Source of the DNA: Escherichia phage WPEC6
Sequence record: PV763039.1
Length of the DNA: 64,000 nt
Direction: 5' to 3' (one strand)
Below, in pieces: positions 2,263-4,984 of this stretch. Below the pieces are notes generated by a model that was given only the letters and a program-made list of their open reading frames with translations, was not told the DNA's origin and ran no database searches. Both the position numbers and the translations under genes were made by a program. The first letter of the stretch is position 1. Each line of letters starts with the position of its first letter.

Positions 2263-2321
2263 TTGCCTGCTGTCAAATTATTTGGCATAATATTTACCAC
2301 GTAGGGCGGCAATGGTGCCGC
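2263..2321 (+). promoter_or_regulatory. promoter-hairpin element E2 (TTGCCT-17-CATAAT, cacGTAGGGCGG + stem GCGGCA/TGCCGC)
   Basis: hexamers and spacing read in sequence; hairpin starts about 7 nt after -10. Confidence 0.6.
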
Positions 2322-2350
2322 TCATAGTGAAATTATACAAGAGGCTTACA

Positions 2351-2455
2351 ATGATTAATAAAGAAAATAGCTTGACGGTTGGAACGATTAACGCTATCAT
2401 TCTAGCCGTTCCGTTTTGGATTGTAGTGTCGGTTATTATTTCAATCATCCTTTAA
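2351..2455 (+). CDS. small hydrophobic peptide (34 aa)
   Basis: RBS acaagagg; first ORF downstream of E2. Confidence 0.35.
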   Translation: MINKENSLTVGTINAIILAVPFWIVVSVIISIIL

Positions 2456-2465
2456 GGTACACACT

Positions 2466-2747
2466 ATGAGCAAGGTAATTAGTCATAAAGAGTTAAGCCC
2501 TACCCTTTCAATGAGTGAGTGCACCGATGGCTTTTGGCTGTATGATGATACGCGCGGCATGAATTTAGCTATGCGTGAAAAAACAGAAGAGGCGGCGTAT
2601 ATTGAAGCCCTGGAATACTACCAGGAACGACTAAAGGAAGTAGAAAACAATTATAACAACCTAAAAGCGAGAGTAGATCACTTTATCAGCCAGGTGGCAG
2701 ATGACGACGATGATCACTACTGCGAACGGTGCGGATCATACAGCTAA
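2466..2747 (+). CDS. hypothetical protein
   Basis: ORF track 93 aa; ATG at 2466. Confidence 0.55.
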   Translation: MSKVISHKELSPTLSMSECTDGFWLYDDTRGMNLAMREKTEEAAYIEALEYYQERLKEVENNYNNLKARVDHFISQVADDDDDHYCERCGSYS

Positions 2748-2766
2748 AAATTATCTAAAAATATTA

Positions 2767-2826
2767 TTGACAACGTTTTAAAAACTGATAAGATGTATCA
2801 CATAGGGCGGTGGAATACTTCCCCGC
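2767..2826 (+). promoter_or_regulatory. promoter-hairpin element E11 (TTGACA-16-TAAGAT, cataGGGCGG + bulged stem)
   Basis: read in sequence; stem ggcgg(t)ggaa/ttccccgcc. Confidence 0.6.
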
Positions 2827-2848
2827 CAAAACAAAAAAGGGTAACACA

Positions 2849-3211
2849 ATGAGCAAGCAAATTACTACTATCATGTTTAATCTGGTATCTTTCCGCGACG
2901 ATATGAAAAATTTACCACGTGAAACGGTTGATATTCATATTTCAGCTTATCGCGCCCTTATTGACATGTTACCGCTAAAACGTGATCAACATGCCGCTAA
3001 TATGATGCTTAATGCTATGCTTAAAAAGATGATTCAAACGGATCTTACTCTGGCGTATGAGTATCAAGGGCGCTTATATGCAACTTACAACAAAGCGGTA
3101 CCTGGTCTGGGAAGTACCGAAGAGTTGCACGGCTTAAACCTGGATCAAGACACTTGGGATAATATGCGCCGCGTTATGGTATGGGCCGAAAGCGGTAAAA
3201 TTTATGAATAA
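2849..3211 (+). CDS. hypothetical protein
   Basis: track ORF 2810..3211 trimmed to ATG 2849 because the GTG at 2810 lies inside the E11 hairpin. Confidence 0.55.
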   Translation: MSKQITTIMFNLVSFRDDMKNLPRETVDIHISAYRALIDMLPLKRDQHAANMMLNAMLKKMIQTDLTLAYEYQGRLYATYNKAVPGLGSTEELHGLNLDQDTWDNMRRVMVWAESGKIYE

Positions 3212-3217
3212 AAACAT

Positions 3218-3274
3218 TTGACACTGTTTAAAATTCTGGTATAGTTTATCACGTAGGGCGGCAATGGTGCCGCC
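3218..3274 (+). promoter_or_regulatory. promoter-hairpin element E3 (TTGACA-16-TATAGT, cacGTAGGGCGG + 7-bp stem)
   Basis: read in sequence. Confidence 0.6.
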
Positions 3275-3296
3275 AATAATGAAAAAGGTTATCATC

Positions 3297-3476
3297 ATGA
3301 CTATCATTGCAAAAACTGAGATCTTAGGTTTAGATTCCATTCTTCTGACATATGAGGAAACGTTAGAAATGTATGTGGTTTCCTATGGTGATTATATGCG
3401 GGAATATGAATATATTGATCTTGCTTTTGAATGTTACATTCGCCAGGTCAATAAAGCCTATAATGATTATCGTTAA
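3297..3476 (+). CDS. small hypothetical protein (59 aa)
   Basis: internal ATG of track ORF 3264..3476, downstream of E3 hairpin. Confidence 0.45.
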   Translation: MTIIAKTEILGLDSILLTYEETLEMYVVSYGDYMREYEYIDLAFECYIRQVNKAYNDYR

Positions 3477-3495
3477 AAGTTTTAGTCTTATACTA

Positions 3496-3547
3496 TTGAC
3501 AATGAGCGATAGTATAAGCATAATAACTTTTATCGGGAACACTTCCC
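3496..3547 (+). promoter_or_regulatory. promoter-hairpin element E13 (TTGACA-17-CATAAT then stem gggaa/ttccc)
   Basis: read in sequence; lacks GTAGGGCGG box but same architecture. Confidence 0.5.
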
Positions 3548-3571
3548 ACTAACCAAAAAGAGAGAAAAATC

Positions 3572-3937
3572 ATGGCTATTAATATCAATGTTTCCGCTTA
3601 TGCTACCCTGGCTAATACTGCTAAAATTGAGCTATCTAGTATTGAGGCGGTACATATTAGCGCCCGTCGCTGGTTTCAACAGTCCTACGGCAATACATAT
3701 TTTTCTTTAATGGTTGACGTTGAGATCTGCGGTAAATTGATTGAAGTGGTTAACGTGCCGTTTCAATATGGCTATGGTGATCATTTCGATACCGTCGCCC
3801 TGGAAGAATTTAGCAAGGTTATTGACCTGGAAGGTAAAGAATTTTCACGCGGCGCGTATCTTTCCCGTTTTTGCCGTGATAATGGGATCACTGTATACAG
3901 TCATGCAAGTGATGTTAAACGTAAAAAAGATTTATAA
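3572..3937 (+). CDS. hypothetical protein
   Basis: ORF track 121 aa; RBS agagag. Confidence 0.6.
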   Translation: MAININVSAYATLANTAKIELSSIEAVHISARRWFQQSYGNTYFSLMVDVEICGKLIEVVNVPFQYGYGDHFDTVALEEFSKVIDLEGKEFSRGAYLSRFCRDNGITVYSHASDVKRKKDL

Positions 3938-3943
3938 AAAGCA

Positions 3944-4005
3944 TTGACAGCACGAATAAAAAGAGTAAACTGTATTACATCAAGGCGGCGGAATGGTCCA
4001 CCGCC
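3944..4005 (+). promoter_or_regulatory. promoter-hairpin element E4 (TTGACA-16-TAAACT, 9-bp stem with one mismatch)
   Basis: read in sequence. Confidence 0.55.
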
Positions 4006-4029
4006 TAACATAGAGAAGAGGAAAACATC

Positions 4030-4203
4030 ATGATCACTTTTACTACCCGTGAAGCCGCTCGCAACGTTGCCCGTAAAGTTAACGCCGCCAACCTGGGCGC
4101 TACTCTTAAAGCCCCTGTAAAAGATGAATCAGGCAAATGGATCTTCCCTGGTCTACGTCATGCTGACAAGTTAGGTACTTTAAGCCTTAAAAATAATCGT
4201 TGA
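4030..4203 (+). CDS. small hypothetical protein (57 aa)
   Basis: ATG 4030 after RBS agaggaaaa; in-frame TGA at 4201. Confidence 0.45.
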   Translation: MITFTTREAARNVARKVNAANLGATLKAPVKDESGKWIFPGLRHADKLGTLSLKNNR

Positions 4204-4237
4204 CTTTTCGTTATAGCGCCTTATAATGGGCGCTATA
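4200..4237 (+). promoter_or_regulatory. promoter with perfect 9-bp inverted repeat flanking the -10 (TTGACT-16-TATAAT)
   Basis: tatagcgcc ttataatg ggcgctata read in sequence. Confidence 0.55.
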
Positions 4238-4270
4238 GAGAAGAGAAACCACTACTAACAAGGAAACATC

Positions 4271-4492
4271 ATGATCACTTTTGCTATTGTCGCCGTTGTT
4301 GCTGGTCAGGTTTACGTAAATGATACATTCACCACAGAAGACAAGGCAGCAGGAGACATCACCGCCGCTTATAATGAGTGCAAGGCAGTAGAAAGGATGT
4401 TAGCGCCTTGTATGTTAATGAGTGAACGCCAGGACGGGATAACAGTATTTAGCAACATTGAAACAGGGTACCAAATGGTAGTAACAAAATAA
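4271..4492 (+). CDS. hypothetical protein
   Basis: ORF track 73 aa. Confidence 0.5.
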   Translation: MITFAIVAVVAGQVYVNDTFTTEDKAAGDITAAYNECKAVERMLAPCMLMSERQDGITVFSNIETGYQMVVTK

Positions 4493-4495
4493 AAC

Positions 4496-4552
4496 TTGAC
4501 ATAGGTTTAATTTTCAGTAAACTGTTACACGTAGGGCGGGAACTGTTCCTGC
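4496..4552 (+). promoter_or_regulatory. promoter-hairpin element E6 (TTGACA-16-TAAACT, cacGTAGGGCGG + covarying stem)
   Basis: stem gcgggaa/ttcctgc preserved with different bases than E2. Confidence 0.6.
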
Positions 4553-4571
4553 TCAAAAAGAGAGAAAGACC

Positions 4572-4925
4572 ATGAAAGCACAAAATGCAATTAAAGAGTA
4601 CATCCTTGCCGCTATCGATTTTAATGATTATGGTATTACAACAGAAAAAGAGAAGATCGCGGAATTGATGCGCCGTTTTAATTCTGAATATTGGTACCCT
4701 GATAATCAATCACGTTTCAATTATAGCATTGTGAAAGCACTTGCATCATGGTTACAAGGTTTACCATCAGATATTAATATCGCTTTCGAATATTGGGAAG
4801 TAGATCGCTTGTTAACATCTTGGGGATACATTAAAGAGAATAGCAGCGATGATAAAATCCAACGAGAAAGGGAAAATTATTGGCTTTATATTGCAGGTGT
4901 GATCCTTGCTTGCTCTTATGAATAA
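4572..4925 (+). CDS. hypothetical protein
   Basis: ORF track 117 aa; RBS agagagaaag. Confidence 0.6.
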   Translation: MKAQNAIKEYILAAIDFNDYGITTEKEKIAELMRRFNSEYWYPDNQSRFNYSIVKALASWLQGLPSDINIAFEYWEVDRLLTSWGYIKENSSDDKIQRERENYWLYIAGVILACSYE

Positions 4926-4931
4926 TAAACC

Positions 4932-4984
4932 TTGACAATTTTACAAAATAGTTTAAATTAACAATATGGCGGCAATGGTGCCGC
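4932..4984 (+). promoter_or_regulatory. promoter-hairpin element E7 (TTGACA-16-TAAATT, GGCGG + stem GCGGCA/TGCCGC)
   Basis: read in sequence; only a 20-codon ORF follows. Confidence 0.5.

Follow-up and report, generated by a model that had tools for sequence, protein, structure and literature searches.

A family of promoter-hairpin units in the small-gene arrays of a Phapecoctavirus resembles the PeSL cassettes of T4-like phages

The stretch of DNA analyzed here, a window of 64,000 nucleotides (nt) from Escherichia phage WPEC6 (PV763039.1), carries a family of intergenic units in which a sigma-70 promoter is followed by a GC-rich hairpin and then by the ribosome site and start codon of a small gene. 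The family was first noticed from the sequence as seven promoters lying between 2263 and 4984. That observation is real and larger than first noted; its structural interpretation is supported, and its placement of the hairpin at the 5' end of early transcripts stands as a prediction. We regard the units, with about even confidence, as modular cassettes for the expression of early genes, of the PeSL kind but in a Phapecoctavirus. Within this reading, the roles as promoter and as recombination linker are well supported and in all probability correct, and the idea that the hairpin, some 20 nt ahead of each ribosome site, acts in RNA to provide stability or insulation is a more tentative proposal to which we give somewhat less than an even chance. 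Autonomous immediate-early expression of each gene, combined with service as recombination linkers, is the most likely overall function.

Megablast assigns the entire window to the genus Phapecoctavirus (phAPEC8-like, Stephanstirmvirinae). Positions 5045-28210, across the replication genes, are 98-100% identical to Mt1B1_P17, ESCO37, and others; positions 1-5044 are matched in relatives patchily, in just 3-7 pieces with 38-52% coverage and about 94-95% identity, and constitute a mosaic region of small open reading frames (ORFs). A second small-ORF piece lies at 60886-62264. In these regions there are 13 units whose GC hairpin is clear, ten of them with an RTAGGGCGG box, and two further atypical units. 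Lining up all units from the -35 to the ATG reveals a shared order: an AT-rich UP-like tract, TTGACA-N16/17-(TG)TAnnnT, about 7 nt (gTATCAC), RTAGGGCGG, the GC hairpin, an A/G-rich leader, a Shine-Dalgarno sequence (SD), and ATG. Each unit is bounded by the stop codon of the preceding gene and by the SD and ATG of the next. The family thus exceeds the range first noted, adding minus-strand units at 2276, 1837, and 1038 and plus-strand units at 60977, 61355, 61728, and 62204. The units of the window, together with one hairpin that lacks a promoter, are as follows.

2263..2350, plus strand: unit E2; -10 CATAAT 2286-2291 or TAATAT 2288-2293; box GTAGGGCGG 2301-2309; hairpin 2304-2323, GGGCGGCA-ATGG-TGCCGCTC; ATG 2351
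2767..2848, plus strand: unit E11; TTGACA 2767-2772; TG-extended -10 TAAGAT 2789-2794; box ATAGGGCGG 2802-2810; bulged hairpin 2806-2827, GGCGG(T)GGAA-TAC-TTCCCCGCC; ATG 2849
3218..3296, plus strand: unit E3; TTGACA 3218-3223; TG-extended TATAGT 3240-3245; box 3253-3261; hairpin 3257-3274, GGCGGCA-ATGG-TGCCGCC; ATG 3297
3496..3571, plus strand: unit E13; TTGACA-17-CATAAT (3519-3524); no box; weak 5-bp hairpin 3535-3547, GGGAA-CAC-TTCCC; leader CTAACCAAAAAGAGAG; ATG 3572
3944..4029, plus strand: unit E4; TTGACA 3944-3949; TAAACT 3966-3971; box variant ATCAAGGCGG; hairpin 3983-4006, AGGCGGCGGA-ATGG-TCCACCGCCT, with one C.A mismatch; ATG 4030
4200..4270, plus strand: unit 4200, atypical; TTGACT-16-TATAAT (4222-4227); hairpin arms TATAGCGCC 4212-4220 and GGCGCTATA 4229-4237, which straddle the -10; ATG 4271
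4496..4571, plus strand: unit E6; TTGACA 4496-4501; TAAACT 4518-4523; box 4531-4539; hairpin 4534-4554, GGGCGGGAA-CTG-TTCCTGCTC, with two G.U pairs; ATG 4572
4932..5004, plus strand: unit E7; TTGACA 4932-4937; TAAATT 4954-4959; box variant ATATGGCGG; hairpin 4967-4986, TGGCGGCA-ATGG-TGCCGCTA; ATG 5005
2194..2276, minus strand: leftward unit 2276; TTGACA 2276-2271; TAAAGT 2253-2248; box variant ATAAGGCGG; hairpin 2236-2216, GGCGGGAA-GTGGT-TTCCCGCT; ATG 2193
1758..1837, minus strand: leftward unit 1837; TTGACA 1837-1832; TG-extended TAGAAT 1815-1810; box GTAGGGCGG 1802-1794; hairpin 1799-1776, GGGCG..CGCCC; ATG 1757
981..1038, minus strand: leftward unit 1038; TTGACA 1038-1033; TAATAT 1016-1011; box 1003-995; hairpin 1000-981
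60977..61051, plus strand: right-cluster unit; TTGATC-16-TATAGT; box 61011-61019; hairpin 61014-61033; ATG 61052
61355..61434, plus strand: right-cluster unit; TTGCAA-16-TATATT; box ATAGGGCGG 61389-61397; inner stem GGGAA-TAG-TTCCC (61399-61411) alone retained; ATG 61435
61728..61803, plus strand: right-cluster unit; TTGACA-16-TAAGAT; box variant GTAGGGGCG; hairpin 61766-61782, GGGGCG-ACAAG-CGCCCC, with C/G positions exchanged on both arms; ATG 61804
62204..62264, plus strand: right-cluster unit; TTGACA-16-TAATAT; box 62239-62247; hairpin 62242-62261
1997-2016, minus strand: promoterless intercistronic hairpin AGGCGGGATTAATCCCGCCT, AGGCGGGAT-TA-ATCCCGCCT, between two minus-strand ORFs

Some of these units have been altered by rearrangement. 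The -35 of E2, TTGCCT, is not native, a junction at 2283 having replaced the TTGACA present in other genomes; the ORF of E7 is truncated by a junction at about 5036-5044; and a further junction, at 62264, lies 3 nt past the hairpin of unit 62204. Unit 1038 faces the 3' end of a plus-strand ORF (614-982) because a junction at about 941 severs its natural downstream gene.

A consensus scan recovers all seven promoters that had been named, with -35 elements starting at 2263, 2767, 3218, 3496, 3944, 4496, and 4932, as well as an eighth at 4200 that had been overlooked; every unit promoter scores 9-11 of 12, and positions 1-5200 contain 33 promoter-like sites versus 17.7 ± 4.6 in shuffles. With at most one mismatch allowed, the window contains 12 copies of GTAGGGCGG, where 2.9 would be expected, and none of 100 shuffles reaches this count; nine of the 12 matches fall in the two small-ORF clusters, three of these nine on the minus-strand side of a block that is inverted in the window. 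Among distinct full units from nine loci, information reaches 1-2 bits per position in the -35, the -10, the box, and the AtAAAAA tract further upstream. In the spacer it is 0.2-0.9 bits, with a mean pairwise identity of 0.40 between paralogous units (62 units with a 16-nt spacer). A TGn-extended -10 is present in 36 of 79 distinct units, TTGACA is invariant among orthologues, and the consensus of the 7-nt discriminator is gTATCAC. Outside the arrays, a core-region promoter (TTGACT-16-TATAAT, about 9772-9700, minus strand) is followed 12 nt later by a hairpin, TGGGAGGA..TCCTCCCA, of -14.9 kcal/mol; post-promoter hairpins are therefore not confined to ORFan arrays.

The geometry of the unit differs from the one first described. 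Rather than lying 5-8 nt past the -10, the hairpin has its first paired base 10-11 nt past it in 52 of 62 distinct family members, and it is the box that begins at 7-8 nt. Nor does the box precede the stem, for its GGCGG is the 5' arm of that stem. The box was said to be usual, which holds for E2, E3, and E6, where GTAGGGCGG is present as such; E11 has ATAGGGCGG, E4 has ATCAAGGCGG, and E7 has ATATGGCGG, and E13 has none. Likewise, the ending CTAACA..AGAGA that was attributed to every unit is found in E4, E13, and unit 4200 and is missing from E2, E3, E7, and E11. The quoted stems are correct: GCGGCA/TGCCGC in E2, E3, and E7; GGCGG(T)GGAA/TTCCCCGCC with a bulge in E11; GCGGGAA/TTCCTGC with one G.U pair in E6; and 9 bp with one C.A mismatch in E4.

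Folded as RNA, the unit hairpins reach -12 to -16 kcal/mol with z-scores of -2 to -3.2 and leave the leader from hairpin to ATG unpaired; the equivalent of the weak E13 hairpin in phage ESCO13 folds at -5.5 kcal/mol. That the stem is kept by compensatory changes, as had been proposed from a handful of examples, is borne out well above controls in a set of 53 distinct units from nine loci. Standard pairs make up 90.7% of cells versus 80.5% in shuffles, and changes on both sides occur at six of 11 pairs (44 cells versus 13.5 shuffled). For covariation, the set scores 0.244 and the shuffles 0.110, none of 500 reaching the former, and the score drops to 0.081 or less when the 3' partner is slid by 1-3 columns; it comes, to the detriment of its weight, from an alignment hand-fitted to the structure whose rows are related paralogues and orthologues. 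Inner stems were aligned outward from the loop and padded with N to hold the MAFFT register, because direct MAFFT alignment of the units misaligned the 3' arms. The inner stems alternate between CA/TG, GAA/TTC, GAAA/TTTC, CGGA/TCCA, and (C)GGAA/TTCC, a further form, GGGGCG/CGCCCC, has C and G swapped on both arms, and the loops are variable (ATGG, TAG, TAC, CTG, GTGGT, ACAAG). In all G.U pairs the G is on the 5' arm. An Rfam scan of 1-5200 returned only four chance-level matches (E 0.8-4.8), far under gathering scores; two of these coincide in position with units but on the other strand, and neither represents the element.

Comparison of orthologues, which is independent of that alignment, points in the same direction as the covariation and upholds the proposal of a selected structure, in that the stem is under purifying selection relative to spacer, discriminator, and loop. 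For the units at 13 ESCO13 positions, compared with up to six other genomes, extra alleles per site amount to 0.00 in the -35, 0.05 in the -10, 0.06 in the box, and 0.094 in the stem, against 0.147 in the spacer, 0.176 in the discriminator, and 0.156 in the loop (stem versus the latter three combined, Fisher p = 0.03). Two positions at which the entire hairpin has been swapped for another paired type account for 15 of the 21 stem changes; with these two swaps set aside, the stem rate is about 0.03 (p = 2e-7). Since the promoter motifs, box, and stem are conserved and the spacer is variable, the pattern reflects functional constraint rather than recent duplication or blanket gene conversion.

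The units are also sites of recombination, a PeSL-like property that the original prediction had missed and that is evident from indel junctions and a chimeric unit. The similarity between the window and four related genomes breaks off in the units, and endpoint statistics were gathered over five genomes. The left half of E4, through GTAAACTGTATTACAT, is identical to one unit of phage DIJ07P1, and its right half, from CAAGGCGGCGG, is identical to a second DIJ07P1 unit about 950 bp downstream, the crossover falling in a 16-17-nt stretch common to both. E4 is thus a recombinant of the two DIJ07P1 units, and the intervening cassettes are therefore absent from the window. DIJ07P1 itself harbors a chimeric unit in which GGGCGGGAATAG, with a GAA-type 5' arm, is joined in the loop to TGCCGCTC, with a CA-type 3' arm. 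A gene together with its following unit (window 3305-3568) is missing from 536P1, with junctions at both start codons. Overall, 44 of 109 homology-block endpoints fall within units versus 21 expected, with units making up about 20% of the arrays (binomial p = 6e-7), a result lessened by the fact that BLAST endpoints, of which 109 are left after collapsing, are non-independent events. The genes carried in this way offer few functional clues: all nine downstream proteins with a family match belong to PHROGs of unknown function, and Pfam yields for the unit-served proteins DUF1033 above the cut-off and one weak sub-threshold match, neither informative.

Two small neighboring genes have a common leader, ...aacatcATGATCACTTTT, and the same first four codons, MITF (4030-4041 and 4271-4282); a breakpoint of homology with DIJ07P1 lies at 4256-4274, where this MITF-type gene start is shared. 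Right after unit 62204 and its junction, at 62264-62320, stands a second promoter, TTGCAA-17-TAAGAT, with no hairpin. The gene behind it has a strong GAGGAGG ribosome site, an expression style unlike that of the cassette genes.

E. coli RNA polymerase prefers to start at a purine (+1) preceded by a pyrimidine (-1), 7-8 nt from the -10. At positions 6-11 past the -10 (n = 79), the units show A in 61, C in 64, R in 70 (A 37, G 33), T in 69, A in 62, and G in 66. A start at the position-8 purine, A or G after C, would match this preference. On the reading we favor, unmodified host RNA polymerase would thus start at the purine of RTAG, each early mRNA would begin 5'-RUA with the hairpin directly next, and the hairpin would obstruct RNase E entry and scanning that depend on the 5' end. 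The location at the 5' end that was originally ascribed to the hairpin holds to this extent: the predicted start puts it 3-4 nt from the 5' end, a placement derived from the sequence. A literature search found no start-site data for these units. The proposed protection has precedents in what is known of mRNA decay. RNase E and RppH require unpaired 5' nucleotides, a 5'-terminal stem-loop blocks RppH, and a pyrimidine at position 2 is disfavored by it (PMC8833179); RNase E is slowed more than 10-fold by a base-paired 5' end (PMC3997798), and obstacles that shield downstream sites from scanning RNase E are described in PMC11194081. In read-through RNA, the hairpin is proposed to form a barrier between cistrons, so that a cassette would work alike wherever it is inserted, and the 20-45-nt identities between cassettes would be substrates for homologous recombination, shuffling the genes.

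Several points weigh against this reading, chiefly as far as the hairpin is concerned. The 5' ends of the unit transcripts are themselves predicted, and a start at R leaves 3-4 nt unpaired, enough for RppH and RNase E, so that protection would need an obstacle effect together with the U at position 2. A simple 5'-cap-like shield is weakened both by these unpaired nucleotides and by hairpinless early promoters. Several strong promoters in the array of the Justusliebigvirus phage alia lack a hairpin, and in one rV5-like copy the box likewise stands alone, which shows that a hairpin is not required. The sense RNA folds better in 40 distinct copies, the antisense in 12, and the two equally in 10 (Wilcoxon p = 0.01), a test that leans only weakly to sense RNA. 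Recurrent CCACC 3' arms, with a C.A mismatch, fold better on the antisense strand, and single-stranded DNA of the stems folds too (-5 to -9 kcal/mol). Finally, a pure stability role leaves the invariance of GGCGG, beyond the needs of pairing, unexplained.

This last point bears on the first of the alternatives, in which the box ACRTAGGGCGG, with or without the hairpin, would be a protein site, either for a DNA-binding repressor that shuts off early transcription at the start or for an RNA regulator or antitermination factor acting on the 5' leader. The near-invariance of the GGCGG 5' arm and of the preceding TA goes beyond what pairing requires, the location at -2 to +9 is typical of an operator, and the occurrence of the -10 and box in unrelated phages is suggestive. 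As to the spread of the family, units are abundant in close relatives, with about 20 inside some 10 kb of ESCO13 and, under a strict filter, 12-16 each in DIJ07P1, DIJ07P2, 536P1, and two IMG/VR contigs. In phage alia, a GC hairpin follows eight of the 14 strong promoters of the array, with four RTAGGGCGG boxes and one ATAAGGCGG. Beyond this group, the box also occurs in Vequintavirinae, hairpins are shorter or absent in rV5-like and Certrevirus contigs, an rV5-like contig having the box on its own, and the T5-like phages have a single copy: the -10 and box TATTATttatcacGTAGGGCGGCAATGA occur once in the terminal repeats of T5-like Epseptimaviruses and are near-identical to a Certrevirus promoter, so that the same 26-33 nt of -10 and box recur in unrelated phages. 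The invariance of GGCGG and this sharing leave room for a sequence-specific reader, whether a start-site repressor or an RNA-binding factor. However, the inner stems covary, a feature for which a DNA binder that reads sequence would have no use, and the loops are unconserved, unlike those of boxB-type sites. Antitermination, which the original prediction had entertained, is further contradicted by the presence of a unit before almost every gene in arrays with nearly no terminators to override. A candidate protein has not been identified, and the enrichment of promoter plus box outside the rV5/phi92 group is weak: the pattern occurs in 22 IMG/VR contigs versus 5 and 11 for two permuted boxes, and about six of the 22 are rV5/phi92-like, on whose removal the remaining excess is unconvincing. 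An IMG/VR search with the 14-mer ATCACGTAGGGCGG gave mostly chance matches in GC-rich contigs. We therefore consider a protein site unlikely as the main explanation.

The near-identical copies of TATTATttatcacGTAGGGCGGCAATGA were seen in Salmonella phage ende (T5-like; 701-790) and Cronobacter phage PBES 02 (1501-1590), which suggests that promoter cassettes may have been transferred between phage families. The GUAG of the T5-like copy is paired to a CUAC lying further downstream, and another hairpin, CGGCGG/CCGCCG, comes next. No match to the unit was found in 5,426 E. coli genomes at E values up to 10, leaving mimicry of the host unsupported. Literature searches with the motif strings returned unrelated primer-type occurrences only, and the literature on promoters of Phapecoctavirus, phAPEC8-like phages, rV5, and phi92 yielded no description of the element.

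A second alternative would have the hairpin act as an attenuator or terminator for polymerases arriving from upstream cassettes, thereby insulating each cassette transcriptionally. One PeSL stem-loop cut lacZ expression as much as rrnB T1 (PMC2839356), and the hairpins studied here are intergenic, some of them standing alone right past stop codons with no promoter. Such promoterless GC hairpins, seen at 1997-2016 of the window and several times in relatives, lie 3-8 nt past a stop codon and mostly about 20 nt before the next ATG. In the window copy, 5 nt separate the hairpin from the stop codon of ORF 2023-2193, and the ATG behind it begins 18 nt later; its plus-strand reading, in which TGTTGATT comes next, is flagged as terminator-like. 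One promoterless hairpin of ESCO13 is followed by TTTCTTTTT. The hairpin of a complete unit, however, lies 3' of its own promoter's predicted start, where a terminator would stop the unit's own transcript. The 8 nt past the hairpin average 1.25 T and 4.5 A, with at least five T in only two of 85 units; a terminator scan flags no sense-strand unit hairpin and finds in 1-5200 about the chance number of terminator-like sites. Intrinsic termination is thus not supported, the GC hairpin having no direct U-tract, and we judge attenuation quite unlikely. What the promoterless copies do show is that the hairpin is a module in its own right. At the site orthologous to 1997-2016, DIJ07P2 and 536P1 have different stems that are still paired, giving three different paired stems at a single promoterless site. 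The occurrence of hairpins of the same kind between cistrons means that their role cannot rest solely on a primary 5' end; in read-through RNA, a promoterless hairpin might either shield the downstream cistron from its 5' side or serve the upstream cistron as a 3' barrier.

It may also be asked whether the hairpin has a function of its own at all, for concerted evolution by gene conversion among repeats, or a selfish existence as recombination linker, might suffice to maintain it. Identical 20-nt hairpins at many loci, whole-hairpin swaps at orthologous positions, chimeric units, and the enrichment of homology breakpoints in units would all be expected on this view. Yet conversion should homogenize the spacer and discriminator too, and both are the most variable parts of the unit. 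Moreover, there are at least five different inner stems, each of them complementary, and differing stems remain paired even at one orthologous promoterless site. Absence of function is accordingly a distinctly unlikely account.

A bolder proposal, which we rate as very unlikely, is that RTAGGGCGG and the hairpin together form a dedicated 5' identity tag of immediate-early messages, shared horizontally among phAPEC8/phi92-like, rV5-like, and T5-like (pre-early) phages and read by a specific host or phage factor. If true, such a tag might, for instance, spare phage mRNAs the RNase E decay that the phage stimulates against host messages, or it might time the early shut-off; an Srd-like protein has been reported in rV5 (PMC3606486).

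It is highly improbable that the element acts at the level of DNA, with GTAG and the GC palindrome extruding into a hairpin or cruciform on which a structure-specific enzyme would act, by cutting or binding, to drive mobility in REP/RAYT- or attC-like fashion: the stems do fold as single-stranded DNA, one crossover is located in a loop, and in REP elements, too, the 5' foot of an imperfect, GC-rich palindrome is a GTAG, but the unit has no match in any E. coli genome, other crossovers lie in the -10/discriminator and leader/ATG as in plain homologous recombination, stems of 6-10 bp are short for cruciform extrusion, and no transposase or integrase was found, none having been searched for. Three narrower candidates were rejected. 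The same 6-10 bp are too short for an RNase III site; a sigma-dependent pause element does not fit, TAGGGC having no T at position 6 of the -10-like hexamer; and an integron attC is suggested by the resemblance of GTAGGGC to GTTRRRY, but there is no paired inverse core and no integrase, and junctions fall at several places in the unit. A resemblance to 16S helix 45 (CGUAGGGGAACCUGCGG) we take to be coincidence.

Several observations concern the window at large. Its block order is scrambled relative to every deposited Phapecoctavirus, with junctions at about 941, 2283, 5036-5044, 60886, and 62264; the natural order, as in 536P1, is C (2283-5044), E (60886-62264), the reverse complement of B (941-2283), ..., A (1-940), and the reverse complement of D (5045-60886). 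No record spans either of the two junctions queried directly, 2283 and 5036-5044, and pieces with 100% identity are found only in the WPEC1/2/4 records, which are themselves broken into 20-28 places. Of the five junctions, three are inside units or adjoin them, which suggests either misassembly at the repeats or rearrangement mediated by the units. Positions 1-600 are apparently noncoding and contain the short repeats ttgccatga... and gggtgtc[ga]aaaataatc; the counterpart in phage alia, directly upstream of the unit array, is annotated as repeat_region, and this segment may be a genome-end or origin region. At the other end, a terminase-like ORF (63177-64000) reads ...YGGAAG/CVSAETEYL...HCFVTGN/SGKSRLLL and looks like one whose Walker A motif (GGAAGSGKS) is split by an intein-like insert of about 160 amino acids; Pfam gave no match for it. 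A cluster of ten tRNA genes occupies 25702-27627, and a box-like GTAGGGCGT at 27056, 3' of a TTGACA-18-TATAGT promoter, was set aside as the leader and 5' edge of tRNA-Gly (27061).

If the units are indeed cassettes of the PeSL kind, their recombination explains the strong mosaicism of the early regions of these phages, and the repeats may also explain the poor assembly of such genomes. A fixed, covarying hairpin right after the predicted start provides a natural test bed for the protection of mRNA by 5'-proximal structure, and the cassettes would be ready-made strong, insulated expression parts for phage engineering.

Several known systems invite comparison. The lambda-type nut site (boxA + boxB) likewise combines a linear box with a hairpin behind it in the leader of early RNA, but here the box belongs to the stem, the loops vary, and each genome has dozens of copies, one for every gene, with no downstream terminators. 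The REP/BIME elements of enterobacteria are also imperfect palindromes, rich in GC and with a GTAG-like foot, that occur in intergenic RNA, and they too are recombination-prone repeats with a proposed role as mRNA decay barriers or attenuators. The phage units, however, have no sequence similarity to E. coli DNA, their stems are much shorter, and they are associated with promoters and with the 5' flank of genes; we know of no RAYT in these phages. Among 5' stabilizers, the T7 phi10 transcripts carry a 5' hairpin. The ompA and papA messages of E. coli are stabilized by 5'-terminal stem-loops (Emory, Bouvet and Belasco 1992, as cited in PMC3997798). These stabilizers share with the units a stable GC hairpin a few nucleotides from the 5' end, predicted in the case of the units, an unstructured leader, and a ribosome site. 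They differ in that 3-4 nt would stay unpaired in the unit transcripts and in that hairpins also occur here between cistrons with no promoter.

The closest known system, not previously reported for the phAPEC8-like group, is the PeSL cassette of T4-like myoviruses, which combines an AT-rich tract holding a stop codon with a consensus early promoter, a GC stem-loop, an SD, and an ATG, is densely repeated in hyperplastic regions beside ORFans, and yields indels and mini-circles by recombination between copies (PMC2839356, Arbiol et al. 2010; PMC4122927, Comeau et al. 2014). According to the same papers, PeSLs are confined to T4-likes, whereas the units described here occur in Stephanstirmvirinae and Vequintavirinae. 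The stem-loops of PeSLs float among five positions; here the stem-loop is fixed 10-11 nt past the -10 (52/62) and is therefore predicted to be transcribed, and a conserved RTAGGGCGG box lies at the predicted +1. The terminator role of PeSLs does not transfer, as the units have no U-tract. In other respects the parallel is close. The layout is the same, from the AT-rich upstream tract with its stop codon through the consensus sigma-70 early promoter and GC stem-loop to the SD and ATG; the units are densely repeated in variable regions and flanked by genes of unknown function; and indel or replacement junctions between close relatives fall inside the cassettes, one of them in a loop. Unit 4200, the only one in the window whose stem overlaps the -10, even corresponds to a classic PeSL subclass. 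The idea behind the PeSL, that the same cassettes both express and shuffle accessory genes, would thereby extend past the T4-like phages to a large group of coliphages that are candidates for therapy.

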